From Terracidiphilus sp. (GTDB lineage: Bacteria > Acidobacteriota > Terriglobia > Terriglobales > Acidobacteriaceae): 64,000 bases of DNA. Below, one piece after another: positions 778 through 61,092 of the stretch. Position 1 is the first letter of the stretch, and each line of letters begins with the position of its first letter. The stretch is from NCBI GenBank assembly GCA_036502485.1, contig DASXYM010000016.1, one strand, 5' to 3'. Under the pieces are notes generated by a model. It searched no databases, was not told the origin of the DNA, and saw nothing but the letters and a program-made list of their open reading frames with translations. A program made the translations under genes and the position numbers.

Positions 778-1368
778 CACGAACGTTATGCCGATAGCCA
801 TCGTATACGTCTAGCGCGTATCACCGCCGACTCTTCCCTTACGGGTACCGGGGCCGAACCCGGCAGGCGAACGGACGTCAAAGGGACGAGTAGCGGGCAA
901 CCGACTACGAAGTCAGTTAGAAATCAGAGGTGGATTTTTCACTTCGCCGTTTACCTCAGCGGGTCACCTTTGGAACATTCAGGCGCAACGCGAGAATCCG
1001 TAAATACGCGGCACCGATTAGTGCACGGGCTGACAGCGTGACAAAAGGCTCGAGAGGCATTTCAAGCCAATGGGACGAGGACTGATGCACATGGAGCGTG
1101 AACCCCTGAAGAAATGCATTGCTCGAACAATTGGGCGTGCCCGAAGAGCGGCTCCGGATGCGAACCCCGCGGGCGCGGCATCGGCAGGAAGCCGGGACCG
1201 TTTCGGCCGTCCTTATGAGCGCCGGGACAACCCGGCCTCCTCATAACGAGCAAATCGGTGTCACATCCACTTCGCAGCAAACCGCCTTCGCCTGAACGCA
1301 CCATCTCGCCATCACCCCATGATCTGTCCCGTCTCATCGATCGCCGTCGTGCTGAACGCCTGGAGATT

Positions 1369-3694: not shown

Positions 3695-3772
<78 letters not shown>

Positions 3773-3911: not shown

Positions 3912-4727
3912 TTATGCGGTCCAGGCTGCCGCCCGGTTTCCGCGCACATTCGAGATAAAGCCCATGTCCATTGAAATACCGCGCACACACTGAAGAAGAT
4001 GATTTGCTATCGAAGGCAGCTTCTGGGCAGTCACGCGGAACGATGGACCCGAAATGCTGACTGCCGCCACAGGCTGCCGCTGGGCATCCAGTACTGGCAC
4101 AGCGATGCAGCGAAGACCTTCTTCCAATTCCTCATCGTCCACGGCGTAACCACGGCGGCGCGTCTTCTCAATCTCCGCGCGCAATGCCTCGGCATTCGCG
4201 ATGGTGCGGTGCGTCAAGCGCTCAAAACGGGTGCGACGGACGATATCCGCAATGCGCTCTTCCGGCAGGAACGCCAGAATCGCCTTGCCCACGGACGTGC
4301 AATGCACCGGATTGCTGGCCCCAATTCGTGTGATCATGCGAACCGAGCGTGCCGGCTCAATCTTGTCGATGTAAATCACGCGGGCCTGCTCAAGGATGCA
4401 CAGGTGAGCCGTTTCTTCGGTTTCCGCCACCAGCCGCCGGAGATGGGGCTGCGCGCGATCACGCAAATCATACTGCTCAATAGCCTTGTTCCCGAAATCG
4501 AATAAACGCAAACCGAGGCGGAATTTACCACTGCTGGTGCGCTCCACCATGTGGTGCCGCTCCAGCACCATCAGGAACCTGTGTGCCGTACTTTTATGGA
4601 GTTGCAGCGAAGATGCCACTTGCGCCAGACCGAGGGGTGTATCGCTTTCACCAAGCAGATCAAGAACAGCAAAAGCTCTATCAAGGGCTTGCACTTTATA
4701 AGTACCGGTAGGGGCAGAGTCTCGCAT
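3912..4727 (-). CDS. IclR family transcriptional regulator
   Basis: VQALDRAFAVLDLL, LHKSTAHRFL, HCTSVGKAILA, RRRGYAVDDEELEEGLRCIAVP. GGAG SD before ATG 4727. Confidence 0.95.
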   Translation of the reverse strand: MRDSAPTGTYKVQALDRAFAVLDLLGESDTPLGLAQVASSLQLHKSTAHRFLMVLERHHMVERTSSGKFRLGLRLFDFGNKAIEQYDLRDRAQPHLRRLVAETEETAHLCILEQARVIYIDKIEPARSVRMITRIGASNPVHCTSVGKAILAFLPEERIADIVRRTRFERLTHRTIANAEALRAEIEKTRRRGYAVDDEELEEGLRCIAVPVLDAQRQPVAAVSISGPSFRVTAQKLPSIANHLLQCVRGISMDMGFISNVRGNRAAAWTA

Positions 4728-42557: not shown

Positions 42558-44372
42558 TTACTGCTGAGGCTGTGTCTGGGCCGGTGGCGTCGGGGACGCC
42601 GGAGTCTGCGCAGGTGCCGGCTGCGGAGCCGTGGTGGGAGCAGGCGCGCCCGGAACCGCCGGAATCGGCGTGGGCTGAACCGGGGCCGCATTCTGCTGCG
42701 GCTCGTCGCTCTTCTTCTTGTCGCTCAGGCGGGTCTTCTCTCCCGTAGTCGTCGCCTGCTTCTTCTTCTTCTTCGTTTCGCCCTGCAAGCCCAGCGCTGA
42801 CGACTGCGTCTGGCGATCCGCCACCTCCGCCGCATCCGGCGCCAATGCCGGGTTCTGCGACGGATAGCTCACCTTCTGCGGGTTAACGTGCTCTTGCTCC
42901 CTCTTCTCCTTAGGCAAACGCGCACGATCGCTGAAGCGCGTCTTCTTCGCCTCCGGAGCCGTCGCTTCCACCGGAGCTTCCGGCAGTGCCGCCTGCGCAG
43001 TCTGAGCTCCCTCGCCCACGCCCTGCCCGGTTGCGCCGGCATCTTCCGTCGGAGCTTCCTGTCCGGCAGGCAGCGTCTTGGTCGGCGCCTGCCCGAAGCG
43101 GATCTTTTCCTTCTTGCCCGGCTTCATCGTCGGAGCAGCCGCGCTGGCCGTGCTGGTCTGCGTCGACCCCGCGGCAGCCGCCGTCGGCGCTGCTTCGCCA
43201 CTCGCTGAAGAGGTCTGTCCAGGCATCGACGTCTTCGAGCGGAAATGGGTGTTCTCGCGGAACCGCGTGCGCTCAACCTTCTTCTTCTTCTTCGGCTGGG
43301 GCGGCGTATACGCCGAGTAGGCAATCGGATTCACGCGCTTGTTGGTGCTGGCGCCCGTGTCCGTAAACCCCGGAGAAATGTCGATGTACGCGTCTTCGCG
43401 CATCTTCGTCAGATACTCGCGGATCGCCGGCTCCATCTTCGACCCGTAGTAGTCCTGCTCAACCTGCTGCTCCACATCCTTATATTCAGGAGCGCCGCCC
43501 GCATTGTGCTGCACCACCTTGAAGATCACAAATCCCTGGCGCGTGCGGATCGGGTCGGTAATCGTTCCCGTCGGCTGGCCGAACGTCGCGTCCTCAAACA
43601 CCTTGTTGAGTTGTCCGCGCTTGTACGTCCCCAGGTCGCCGCCCTGCGCGGCCGTCTGCCCCTCGCTGGATGCCTTGGCCACCTGCACGAAGTCTTCGCC
43701 GCCCCTCAGCTTGGCCACGACCCCCTCAGCCTTCGTCTTCGCCGCCGCAACCTGCGCGTCGCTGGCGTCGGCCGGCGTGCTGATCAGGATTTCGCTCAGC
43801 TTCACGCTCTCCGGCTGCTCATAGTCCTTCTTGTGCTCCTCAAAGTAGCGCTGCACCTCGCCCGGTGTGAAGGAGATGTGCCGGCCCACCTCGTCGCGCA
43901 TCACCTGCTGCGTGACGATCTGGTTGCGAATATTAGCTTTGAAGTCCTCATAGCTGACGCCCTGCTCCTGGGCCGCCTTCTCCAGGTCCTCGAGCGTACC
44001 CAGGTTGTACTGCTTGCGGATCTCGTTCAGGCGGTTGATCAGCTCGGTCTCGCCCGTGATGCCCAGTTCCTTGCCCTTCGAGATCCAGAGCTGCTGATCG
44101 ATCAGGTTACGCAGCAAGTCTTTATGCGCATCGGAGATCTGCTGCATCGTCGCGCCCTGCTTGCGGGCCTCGTCGTCCAGCTCCTTCTGAGCGCGGTCGT
44201 AATCGGACCGGGTGATGATCTGGTCATTCACGCGGGCAAGAATCTCTTCTACCGTGACGCCGCCGTAGGGGCTCGCCGGCTCAGCAGGACGCGTCTGCGC
44301 CAGGGCGGAAGTTGCAAGCAGGGCTGCCGTCAAAGCGGCCACCGCGGGGATACGAAGAAAAGTCAAGGTCAT
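42558..44372 (-). CDS. SurA-like peptidyl-prolyl isomerase with a long low-complexity C-tail
   Basis: EEILARVNDQIITRSD, LSEILIST, GEDFVQVAKASSEG, GGDLG, RTRQGFVIFKV. Confidence 0.88.
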   Translation of the reverse strand: MTLTFLRIPAVAALTAALLATSALAQTRPAEPASPYGGVTVEEILARVNDQIITRSDYDRAQKELDDEARKQGATMQQISDAHKDLLRNLIDQQLWISKGKELGITGETELINRLNEIRKQYNLGTLEDLEKAAQEQGVSYEDFKANIRNQIVTQQVMRDEVGRHISFTPGEVQRYFEEHKKDYEQPESVKLSEILISTPADASDAQVAAAKTKAEGVVAKLRGGEDFVQVAKASSEGQTAAQGGDLGTYKRGQLNKVFEDATFGQPTGTITDPIRTRQGFVIFKVVQHNAGGAPEYKDVEQQVEQDYYGSKMEPAIREYLTKMREDAYIDISPGFTDTGASTNKRVNPIAYSAYTPPQPKKKKKVERTRFRENTHFRSKTSMPGQTSSASGEAAPTAAAAGSTQTSTASAAAPTMKPGKKEKIRFGQAPTKTLPAGQEAPTEDAGATGQGVGEGAQTAQAALPEAPVEATAPEAKKTRFSDRARLPKEKREQEHVNPQKVSYPSQNPALAPDAAEVADRQTQSSALGLQGETKKKKKQATTTGEKTRLSDKKKSDEPQQNAAPVQPTPIPAVPGAPAPTTAPQPAPAQTPASPTPPAQTQPQQ

Positions 44373-53902: not shown

Positions 53903-54066
53903 TCCGTCATTCGTTGCCAGGAAACACTAAGCATTCGCGCTTTGAAGGGGCGCGACTTCAGTCGTGCCGCAAAGCACCCGGACGACGCGGGCTTCACCCC
54001 CTGAGAGATGGTTCTCGTCAACTGCGTACTTTGTCGGCTCCGTCATCCGTCTCCAGAAACACTAAG
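53903..54066. repeat. 107-bp palindromic module bracketed by imperfect 28-29-bp direct repeats
   Basis: TCCGTCATTCGTTGCCAGGAAACACTAAG (53903-53931) and TCCGTCATCCGTCTCCAGAAACACTAAG (54039-54066). Internal hairpin GGCGCGACT-TC-AGTCGTGCC. Confidence 0.7.
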
Positions 54067-54088
54067 GGGACGCTCTAAGCGTCCCCTT
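54064..54088 (-). terminator. Hairpin downstream of the microprotein gene
   Basis: 11-bp stem AAGGGGACGCT/AGCGTCCCCTT. Confidence 0.75.
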
Positions 54089-54120
54089 TGAGTGTTGCCT
54101 GTTTTGTTGTTGGTCGCGAA

Positions 54121-54192
54121 TTACTTCTTCTTTGCGGCCTTCTTCGCGGCCTTCTTCGCAGGTGCTTTCTTGGCTGCCTTCTTAGTTGCCAT
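54121..54192 (-). CDS. 23-aa Lys/Ala-rich microprotein MATKKAAKKAPAKKAAKKAAKKK
   Basis: ATG 54192, TAA 54121-54123, SD GGGAG 9 nt upstream, with its own promoter and hairpin. Below the ORF-track size cutoff. Confidence 0.85.
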   Translation of the reverse strand: MATKKAAKKAPAKKAAKKAAKKK

Positions 54193-54253
54193 TTGCCTAT
54201 TCTCCCTTTTCGATGGTTCGCATCGATACTGCAAATGAATTGCAGTTGAGGAA

Positions 54254-54282
54254 TGTATAGATTCATGTGTCACAAGTGTCAA
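54254..54282 (-). promoter_or_regulatory. Sigma70-type promoter for the microprotein gene
   Basis: TTGACA (54282-54277), 17-nt spacer, TATACA (54259-54254). Confidence 0.7.
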
Positions 54283-54354
54283 GAGAAAAACGAACACTAC
54301 GTGGAAAAAGTGGTAACAATTTCTTCAAGTTGAATTCGCAATCGGATTGCGACT

Positions 54355-55164
54355 TCAAATCACACCGCGTGAATGCAAAAGTGCGAGCCCCAAACCCGCA
54401 ATGATGTCCTGCCAGGCATGCGCCATCATGCCCGCTCGAATGTTGCGGCGGAAGATCGCCAGCACGCTGAACAGCGCACCATAGATCGACAGCAGAATCA
54501 TGTAATGCACGCCCTGGTACCCATGCGCGCAGCCGAACATAAGCGCTGAAAACACCACGCCCATCGCCAGCGCTCCCCTTCCCCACGCCGTGAACTGCCG
54601 CTGCAGATACCCACGGAACACAATCTCCTCGCTGATGCCCGCCATCACGCAGAGCAGTATCCATGCGGCTATTTCGCTCATGTTCGAGGGCGCAAGGCCG
54701 GCCAGCGTGTGGACCGTCTTCTCCTGCGATGGGTCAAGCTTGCCATTGTTCATCAGCGGACGATGATGAATCAGCGCATCCGTAATCAGCCACGTCGCAT
54801 TGATCGTCGCCAGCGCCGCAAGCGAGCTGATCCAGAAACCCGCCGCCACAAGAACATCGATCCCCAGCGAACGCGAGCCCGAGACATTCCCGAAGATCAA
54901 CCGAAACGGAATCTTCCGCAGCCGCATCCCCAGGTAGATCCAACCCACCATCACGAACTCCGTCGCAAGCGTCGTCGCATACGTCTGCAGCCGGTTCACA
55001 TGCGCCTCATGCTCTCCGGAAAACTGCTTCGCGCCTGCCAAGGAAAGTAGAAGGATTCCCGCGACCAGCACAACCGTATGCCAGACCGGCGCAATCGGGG
55101 TGGTCGATCCGGGTGTGATGCTGAACACCGGTTCAGCGGAGGGCGGATAAGTTTGATCGGACAA
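54355..55164 (-). CDS. CPBP (Abi/CAAX) intramembrane metalloprotease
   Basis: AGISEEIVFRGYLQ, FGCAHGYQG, MMAHAWQD; multiple TM segments. Confidence 0.92.
   Translation of the reverse strand: MSDQTYPPSAEPVFSITPGSTTPIAPVWHTVVLVAGILLLSLAGAKQFSGEHEAHVNRLQTYATTLATEFVMVGWIYLGMRLRKIPFRLIFGNVSGSRSLGIDVLVAAGFWISSLAALATINATWLITDALIHHRPLMNNGKLDPSQEKTVHTLAGLAPSNMSEIAAWILLCVMAGISEEIVFRGYLQRQFTAWGRGALAMGVVFSALMFGCAHGYQGVHYMILLSIYGALFSVLAIFRRNIRAGMMAHAWQDIIAGLGLALLHSRGVI

Positions 55165-59835: not shown

Positions 59836-61092
<1,257 letters not shown>

Follow-up and report, generated by a model that had tools for sequence, protein, structure and literature searches.

Is a 23-residue peptide consisting almost wholly of lysine and alanine the product of a real bacterial gene, and if so, what might it bind? 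The question is raised by a locus on the minus strand of a 64,000-nucleotide (nt) stretch of DNA from Terracidiphilus sp. (assembly GCA_036502485.1, contig DASXYM010000016.1), referred to here as the window, which comes from a soil-metagenome assembled genome and of whose sampled words 97% were found in one DNA run. An initial annotation had proposed that positions 54064-54282 hold an unannotated, monocistronic unit for a microprotein resembling the tail of histone H1. Our analysis favors the view that this is a real, strongly expressed gene for a 23-residue polycation and that the peptide binds polyanions, most likely chromosomal DNA; we give this reading as a whole a probability of roughly one half.

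In acidic soils and peat the Acidobacteriaceae belong to the dominant bacteria, and to our knowledge almost nothing is known about how they organize their chromosomes. If the peptide is indeed a component of the nucleoid or the ribosome, it would provide a minimal natural model of the fuzzy electrostatic binding attributed to the H1 tail, and at 23 residues it can be synthesized chemically and hence tested directly by biophysics. A tail-only histone or counter-ion of ribosomal RNA (rRNA) of this size would be smaller than any bacterial chromatin or ribosome component now known.

A compact transcription unit upstream of rsmE

We read the whole transcription unit directly from the minus strand at 54282-54053, where a promoter, a leader with two hairpins, a Shine-Dalgarno (SD) sequence, an open reading frame (ORF) and a terminator follow one another. 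The elements named in the initial annotation (a TTGACA-N17-TATACA promoter, two leader hairpins, the SD GGGAG, the ORF and an 11-bp hairpin) were all present on that strand as it had read them. The extent it had given, 54064-54282, contains these elements and falls a few bases short of the end of the unit, which lies at a T-tract near 54053.

The sigma-70-type promoter (54254..54282) is composed of a -35 hexamer TTGACA at 54282-54277, a 17-nt spacer and a -10 hexamer TATACA at 54259-54254, and its start site is predicted. It went unlisted by a promoter scanner because the scanner demands T at position 6 of the -10 hexamer. Upstream, a T-tract, the A/T-rich element CTTTTTCCAC...CGTTTTTCTC (54283..54310), abuts the -35 hexamer and is a possible UP element. 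The 5' leader (54193..54253) carries hairpin 1 (ACTGCAA/TTGCAGT, 54246-54228), hairpin 2 ((T)CGATG/CATCG(A), 54226-54210) and an invariant block, AAAAGGGAGAATAGGCAA, that contains the SD GGGAG (54206-54202), nine nt upstream of the ATG at 54192. The ORF (54192-54121, 23 codons, with a TAA stop at 54123-54121) encodes MATKKAAKKAPAKKAAKKAAKKK and, by repeat analysis, is made of 12- and 15-nt units specifying AAKK and APAKK. It is followed by a 3' untranslated region (UTR) spacer (54097..54120) whose A-rich end, where the conserved motif AGGCAACAC is located (54100-54092), enters the 5' arm of an extended terminator. The intrinsic terminator (54053..54096) is a long G+C-rich stem followed by TTTCTG; a terminator scan delimited an inner stem of 11 pairs, 7 of them G-C, at 54088-54064, and an inverted-repeat search delimited an outer stem with 16-nt arms spanning 54093-54059. 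The RNA predicted from promoter to terminator is about 195 nt long.

The unit differs from its surroundings in base composition, with a G+C content of 47% versus 61% for the window. When all six frames of the 64 kb were searched for stretches with at least 6 Lys per 15 residues, only two were found, one in the unit and one near 42779 (minus), and the unit is far beyond chance. The peptide contains 11 Lys, 9 Ala, 1 Pro, 1 Thr and 1 Met and no acidic residues, in agreement with the count of 11 Lys and no acidic residues made earlier, and the label "H1-tail-like" holds as a description of this Lys/Ala/Pro repeat composition. Its net charge is near +11, and it is without Arg, aromatic or bulky hydrophobic residues. 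The predicted product is ATKKAAKKAPAKKAAKKAAKKK, with or without the initiator Met. On a helical wheel the Lys residues are evenly spread (mean resultant length of 0.06), so the peptide is not amphipathic and phosphate contacts are possible on all sides.

To assemble related loci we used the rsmE protein as a query and obtained 80, each from a different GTDB species genome, all Terracidiphilus or allied Acidobacteriaceae with rsmE identities of 73-89%. The unit was upstream of rsmE in 80 of 80 loci, with the ATG, SD spacing and stop kept, and the ORF was intact in 79; in the remaining locus, L074, it was broken solely by an NN assembly gap. All of the peptides begin MATKKA and end AKKK, except for one shorter variant with KKKK, and their lengths of 19-37 amino acids (aa) differ by in-frame indels of repeat units. 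Promoter (CTTGACA-N17-TATACA), T-rich tract (including its blocks TTTTTCCAC and CGTTTTTTTC), both hairpins, the block AAAAGGGAGAATAGGCAA-ATG and the terminator were all kept, and GGGAGAATAG in the leader was invariant.

The structured parts of the RNA also showed signs of constraint. In 77 sequences hairpin 1 had 5 invariant pairs and 2 pairs with compensatory or G-U changes, while the spacing between its arms, that is its loop, differed by ~7 nt in the alignment. This variation fits an RNA hairpin, and we reject the reading as a DNA operator. The mean minimum free energy (MFE) of the hairpin 2 segment was -5.4 kcal/mol versus -0.55 kcal/mol for shuffled sequence, and it was lower than shuffled in 73 of 76 sequences. 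Compensatory changes were found in the terminator stem across 62 relatives, one pair for example being GC in 35, AU in 14 and GU in 13, and AACAC(T) of the 3' UTR pairs with (A)GTGTT in a manner that covaries between species.

Two further features of the RNA were seen. A conserved TTC(C/T)TC just past the -10 hexamer (54247-54253) is complementary to the SD GGGAG (54202-54206), and 61 of 76 leaders showed this UUCCU-SD pairing in their MFE fold; if those bases are transcribed, the pairing could hide part of the SD, and we do not rely on it because they may precede the transcription start. The sequence AGGCAAC(AC) stands just before the terminator, is doubled in several relatives (L012, L040, L061, L066 and L085) and resembles AGGCAA-ATGGCAAC at the start codon, and codon 2 is GCA in 45 of 45 sequences, a frozen synonymous site. 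Together the motif and the frozen codon suggest constraint at the RNA level, or a protein-binding motif, beyond terminator pairing.

Substitution patterns point to selection on the Lys/Ala reading frame

We calculated codon-position statistics for 45 unique nucleotide sequences of the 23-residue class (24 codons). Variable columns numbered 7, 3 and 21 at codon positions 1, 2 and 3, pairwise differences at the same positions numbered 747, 174 and 6731, and codon differences were 6325 synonymous versus 834 non-synonymous. Purifying selection extended beyond the Lys codons to the Ala, Pro and Thr positions and to both termini. Among 175 unique ORFs of the family, comprising 4081 codons, there were 1973 Lys, 17 Asn and 0 Arg codons, an exclusion of Arg that is striking given a G+C content of about 60% in the lineage.

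The opposite strand carries a second open frame, rich in Phe, Ala and Leu, that shares wobble positions with the Lys/Ala frame, so third-position periodicity alone cannot identify the coding strand. The two strands can be told apart at particular sites. The wobble position of Lys codons that precede a non-Lys residue is four-fold degenerate in the antisense frame, and in the 175 ORFs it was G or A in 714 of 714 cases, whereas the wobble of Ala codons preceding Lys, which is two-fold in the antisense frame, used all four bases. The restriction of the Lys wobble to G or A although it is four-fold in the antisense frame indicates that selection acts on the sense frame. The type of the first antisense start codon varied, as did its position, which ranged from -95 to +49 counted from the sense stop; the frame's relation to the conserved 3'-UTR motif was not kept, and in locus L004 the frame was closed by a stop just upstream of its Phe-rich core. 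The sense ORF has an ATG, an SD and a stop whose positions are invariant. Judged by these substitutions, the ORF is under protein-level purifying selection that retains Lys and excludes Arg, and its conservation and synonymous-site pattern identify it as a real protein-coding gene.

Transcripts from the unit in soil

We examined k-mer depth in soil and rhizosphere metatranscriptomes and found values of 15-1379 over 54108-54243, compared with 0-2.5 for rsmE, CPBP and sdaA. Unitigs with an exact match from SD to start (at least 97% identity) had depths of 380-388. Within 20 kb, at 88% identity or more, rho alone (59836-61092, plus strand, with Rho_N, Rho_RNA_bind and ATPase domains) reached a depth comparable to that of the unit. 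Illumina adapter sequence adjoined contig ends at two places, within hairpin 1 and immediately 5' of the terminator stem, meaning that the inserts were below read length, as expected of a short discrete RNA with structured ends. A look for isolate RNA-seq or Ribo-seq runs, for the organism of the window and for the cultured carrier Terracidiphilus gabretensis S55 (locus L024), turned up none. The unit is strongly expressed and independently transcribed. The initial annotation had staked its proposal on transcripts or ribosome footprints and on conservation of the ORF, SD and frame in relatives; all three were conserved, and the transcripts were found.

Relatives, second locus and annotation status

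To learn how far the family extends, we scanned metagenome contigs with a sequence pattern and obtained at least 120 stretches. The pattern included GGGAGAAT, so more distant relatives were outside its reach. Among the matches listed, 121 in all with one from a scan of viral contigs, 78 were of the MATKK type, 41 were of a sister type and 2 were unrelated; the single viral match was an unrelated ORF of 73 aa. ORFs of the MATKK type, again among the matches listed, were 15-58 aa long with a mode of 22-23 aa, and those of the sister type, MK[S/N/T/Y]ATKK…KKKK, were 19-24 aa long, e.g. MKSATKKAAPKKKAAPKKKK.

The two types occupy different places. Units at the rsmE locus (type A) keep the order (sdaA)-CPBP-unit-rsmE down to an rsmE identity of ~47-50%, at which divergence rsmE is convergent with the unit. 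Units of the sister branch (type B) were, among the matches listed, always between an RlpA/SPOR gene and a convergent Methyltransf_28 gene, with der ~1.6 kb away. Their promoter was TTGAC[AT]-N17-TATATA in 38 of 38 units, they also have a leader hairpin, a GGGAGAAT SD and a terminator, and upstream of the promoter they carry CATTTTTTTC where type A has its T-rich tract. The synteny from rsmE to the CPBP protease that had been suggested as a check is therefore a property of type A, one branch of the family, the sister branch being at its own conserved locus. The claim that the unit is monocistronic is borne out by its conserved promoter, by a terminator with compensatory changes and by the recurrence of the same architecture at the second locus. 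A third context (L100, L107 and L195) encodes longer peptides of 37-58 aa, MATKKAAKKATKKAAKK…, preceded by a GCCGGCG hairpin and then AAACAAACAAAAGGGAGAATACCA; no obvious TTGACA promoter was seen within 100 nt.

Two variant arrangements were also seen. In L175 (minus, 103-aa ORF) and L196 (95-aa ORF) the SD context and MATKKAAKK… run on, in one ORF, into a small conserved C-terminal domain of about 60 aa, …RKYSPSVGKDVEREMHEMKRGKLKSGRSGKKVTSRKQAIAIGLSEARKEGKKVP, so the AKK tail is also found extending another small protein at its N terminus. The L160 contig (4867 nt) has two inverted CPBP-unit-rsmE copies, at 884-913 (+) and 3961-3989 (-), and in one of them the ORF (MATKKAAKKAAREEGRKKKK…) is degenerate and frameshifted. 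The contig is either a chimera made in assembly or a genuine inverted duplication of which one copy is decaying.

We then asked how the gene is represented in protein collections. The exact 23-aa peptide was absent from a collection of about 15 billion proteins. With an over-extended 58-aa ORF as the query, we retrieved at least 120 proteins of 34-101 aa, and each one inspected consisted of the core peptide preceded by a non-conserved N-terminal extension in which leader or promoter had been translated. Leader lengths, divided by three, leave every possible remainder, so these extensions are not conserved as protein. The term "unannotated" is accordingly right for the exact peptide, while relatives do appear in the form of over-extended calls. 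Most of these bear the JGI label "hypothetical protein"; for P0003, P0005, P0007, P0024, P0063 and P0098 the JGI/IMG labels were "topoisomerase IA-like protein", "cell division protein ZapA" and "dsRNA-specific ribonuclease", spurious names that arise because Lys-rich low complexity produces artefacts.

The gene has thus been missed or mis-started by gene callers and has gone without recognition. Our literature search found no paper with the peptide sequence and no account of small Lys-rich proteins of this sort in Acidobacteria. We regard the family as previously uncharacterized, comprising (A/P/T)-A-K-K repeat microproteins of 15-58 residues from Acidobacteriaceae and related soil Acidobacteriota. 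The chemistry is of an already-known kind, that of bacterial H1-like Lys-rich proteins. The new aspect is a free-standing, tail-only peptide of ~20 residues with its own strong promoter and terminator at fixed loci in a major soil lineage. A highly transcribed, conserved gene overlooked in this way leaves a concrete gap in each genome and metagenome of the group and, if our reading is right, amounts to a systematic miss by gene callers in one of the most abundant soil phyla. Because low-complexity microproteins are dropped by length limits and composition filters, similar families may be widespread.

What the peptide may bind

Searches against known families gave little. Rfam returned no match at the unit (E<=1 over the region, gathering thresholds over the whole window), the sole match of the whole-window scan being a tRNA at 3698-3771 (minus). 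Pfam and NCBIfam profile scans of several family peptides gave no meaningful match, a Pfam scan of the 58-aa variant yielding NNH2 alone at E=7.7, which is noise, and phmmer against the PDB at E<=10 found none, probably owing to composition filters. For linker histone H1/H5 (PF00538) there was no Pfam match even at E<=10, and the likeness is limited to tail-like composition; a winged-helix domain is excluded because the 23-aa peptide is too short to hold one. Hc1 (PF07432) and Hc2 (PF07382) were unmatched at E<=10 with three family peptides. The 37-aa variant scored 10.2 bits against NF038053 (Burkholderiales H1-like, cut-off 80) and 11.2 bits against NF050153 (the Rv3852 family, cut-off 100), and the 23-aa peptide matched neither. 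The KPAA repeats of AlgP and PhaF are also absent, the family having AAKK/APAKK, a few units at most and no other domain.

Lys/Ala/Pro repeats are a feature of H1 tails and, among bacteria, of Hc1/Hc2 (Chlamydia), the HupB/MDP1 tail (mycobacteria), AlgP and the PhaF C-terminal region (Pseudomonas) and DdbA (Streptomyces). Like these proteins, and like mycobacterial Rv3852 and the Burkholderiales H1-like proteins, our peptide is a low-complexity Lys/Ala/Pro repeat with almost no Arg or acidic residues, and it would be expected to share their electrostatic, multivalent binding of DNA, RNA or polyphosphate (polyP). Lys/Ala/Pro tails such as that of H1 are thought to bind DNA (PMC12818456; PMC9239181; PMC3643593). 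Repeat number varies between relatives of the unit as it does for Hc2, whose pentamers differ in number between species or strains (PMC2848022), and for PhaF, whose KPAA counts vary (PMC12818456). H1-like proteins are ~100-350 aa long, with an extra domain or a much longer array; AlgP and PhaF, for instance, have 9 to about 30 copies of tandem KPAA tetrapeptides joined to another domain (PMC12818456). In contrast, our peptide is a tail only (15-58, usually 20-23 aa) with its own promoter and terminator, and its AAKK/APAKK repeat has Lys doublets, unlike the KPAA units of PhaF/AlgP and the Hc2 pentamers. In being very small and highly basic it resembles sperm protamines and ScvA and Hq1 of Coxiella burnetii, which bind DNA in a condensed nucleoid. 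Protamines are Arg-rich, ScvA is Arg/Gln-rich and both are stage-specific, whereas our peptide has Lys only and its transcript is abundant in bulk soil RNA. For ScvA and Hq1, which are enriched in the small cell variant, the term "small basic DNA binding proteins" has been used (PMC4766238).

The strong sigma-70-type promoter with its T-rich tract drives a short RNA bearing a 5' hairpin, a near-ideal SD and a long intrinsic terminator. In the mechanism that we propose, the disordered peptide made from this RNA would bind cellular polyanions through multivalent electrostatic contacts. By analogy, the peptide probably coats DNA or RNA in the manner of a histone H1 tail. The suggestion of the initial annotation, a nucleoid-condensing or ribosome-associated peptide, is plausible in this light. 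With chromosomal DNA as the target, the peptide would behave as a mobile counter-ion that helps to compact the DNA, akin to the H1 C-terminal tail or the Lys/Ala/Pro tails of bacterial Hc1/Hc2, HupB, AlgP and PhaF; RNA or the ribosome would be the alternative target of such a polycation. A variable repeat number and the use of Lys alone are in keeping with a dynamic, "fuzzy", non-stereospecific binder and not with a peptide made for a fixed pocket, and we therefore rank binding and compaction of nucleoid DNA first, with a ribosomal microprotein as the main rival. A bolder version, put forward tentatively and at somewhat less than even odds, is that Acidobacteriota hold a "tail-only linker histone" at housekeeping level, which would serve as a major counter-ion of the nucleoid or of rRNA, in the latter case as a new repeat-type ribosomal microprotein.

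Several points weigh against DNA binding by a translated, highly expressed peptide. The proposed function and binding partner rest on composition and analogy, translation of the ORF is predicted, and our Pfam, NCBIfam and PDB searches found no homology to any characterized DNA-binding family. The RNA evidence consists of assembled metatranscriptome contigs, which are strandless and give a crude depth, and the depth of the unit is inflated relative to its neighbors because its high conservation recruits contigs from many species. Conservation at a fixed locus, housekeeping-like expression and adjacency to rsmE would suit a ribosomal role equally well.

Such a role would make the peptide an rRNA-bound microprotein analogous to bS22, eL41 and mS38 (or bL37 and bTHX), a short basic helix in an rRNA pocket, which for bS22 is the 30S pocket formed by h2, h27, h44 and h45. 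The unit has much in common with genes of this class: proteins such as bS22, eL41 and mS38 (24-33 aa) are likewise extremely basic, predicted to be helical, missed by annotation and highly transcribed (PMC10618245), and it too is tiny and deeply conserved at fixed loci. bS22 itself is ~30 aa long with 61% Lys+Arg, its gene in Borrelia is unannotated, a candidate essential gene and abundant as transcript, and its authors predict that it occurs in more phyla (PMC10618245). A weak hint in the same direction is that the type A unit stays beside rsmE, which encodes the 16S rRNA m3U1498 methyltransferase, even when rsmE is inverted. Against this, the family lacks the unique, near-invariant Arg+Lys-rich sequence expected of a pocket-fitted protein. 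Only one residue of bS22 differs across the entire genus Borrelia (PMC10618245), whereas our peptide is a low-complexity repeat whose length varies by whole repeat units between 15 and 58 aa and, even inside one genus (Terracidiphilus-like genomes), between 19 and 37 aa. The known proteins mix Arg, Lys and His, and all three known bS22 sequences are Arg-rich and contain His; here there is no Arg in 4081 codons, and His is represented by one C-terminal residue in two metagenomic variants. The type B locus is without a ribosome-related neighbor save der. The bS22 profiles (NF047430; PF08213 COX24_C) did not match family peptides, a result that is uninformative because verified bS22 of Flavobacterium and Borrelia also went unmatched and M. 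smegmatis bS22 alone was found. On balance we consider a ribosomal seat for the peptide unlikely.

We regard as less probable still that the peptide is a Lys-rich disordered binder of RNA or of polyP granules, and not a nucleoid protein. The precedents are the KPAA region of PhaF, a Lys-rich disordered region that binds specific transcripts through its lysines and activates translation (PMC12818456), and AlgP, linked to the spacing of polyP granules, with which it is associated (PMC12818456; PMC9239181). Our peptide is chemically a polycation of the same type, and the structured leader and invariant SD block could, speculatively, permit autoregulation by binding of the peptide to its own mRNA; however, it has AAKK/APAKK in place of KPAA repeats and no attached folded domain for localization or specificity, and no polyP-metabolism gene was seen among its identified neighbors. 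The present data do not separate RNA or polyP from DNA as the target. We reject, as very improbable, the reading that the ORF is a Lys/Ala-sensing attenuator leader peptide of rsmE or incidental to a non-coding small RNA (sRNA). A promoter, a short ORF rich in one residue, a terminator hairpin and a co-directional rsmE give a superficial resemblance to an attenuator, but in type B (41 among the matches listed) and divergent type A loci the gene that follows is convergent with the unit, which leaves an attenuator without a target. The stop is also separated from the terminator stem, which follows it, by ~25-33 nt, and we saw no antiterminator pairing as an alternative. The selection across Ala, Pro and Thr positions and both termini and the lack of an Rfam match speak against an attenuator or sRNA. 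We also reject, giving it least credence, next to none, the possibility that the product is the hydrophobic antisense peptide (…YFFFAAFFAAFFAGAFLAAFLVAICLF…) with the sense RNA as its antitoxin, in the manner of Ibs/Sib, or that the Lys peptide is a secreted antimicrobial. In Sib/Ibs pairs the toxin ORF lies wholly inside an abundant sRNA, a geometry that the unit shares, and all relatives have an open antisense frame with wobble positions in common with the sense frame. An open Phe/Ala/Leu frame of this kind is, however, an automatic consequence of Lys/Ala coding; the antisense frame has no conserved start, and no conserved antisense promoter is present because the DNA past the terminator is not conserved, while substitutions follow the sense frame (the 714 G or A wobbles). 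We reject an amphipathic antimicrobial peptide in view of the uniform distribution of Lys on the helical wheel and the absence of a signal peptide, and no transporter or immunity gene was found among the identified neighbors.

Neighboring genes and minor features

The unit is flanked by rsmE (53854-53123, minus) and the gene for the CPBP/Rce1-like protease (55164-54355, minus). Further genes nearby encode L-serine dehydratase (sdaA, minus) and a YifB/ComM-like ATPase (plus).

A near-perfect palindrome at 54330-54358 (14-nt arms, 1-nt gap, 93% complementary) overlaps the CPBP stop codon and sits ~50-75 nt upstream of the -35 hexamer of the unit. It is a candidate CPBP terminator or regulatory site, and it was not seen in the single relative inspected (L074).

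Between the terminator and rsmE there is a direct repeat of ~21-30 nt with a spacing of 136 nt (53903-53923 and 54039-54059), and the repeat element CTTAGTGTTTC is also found at 53921-53931 and 54056-54066. The distal part of the terminator (CTTAGTGTTTC-TGG-A-CG-ATGACGGA) is thereby present twice, bracketing ~110 nt of extra DNA. In most relatives, the closest (L001) included, the gap from terminator to rsmE is 60-130 nt. The 110-nt insert with its repeats resembles the outcome of a local duplication, or of a small insertion that duplicated its target.

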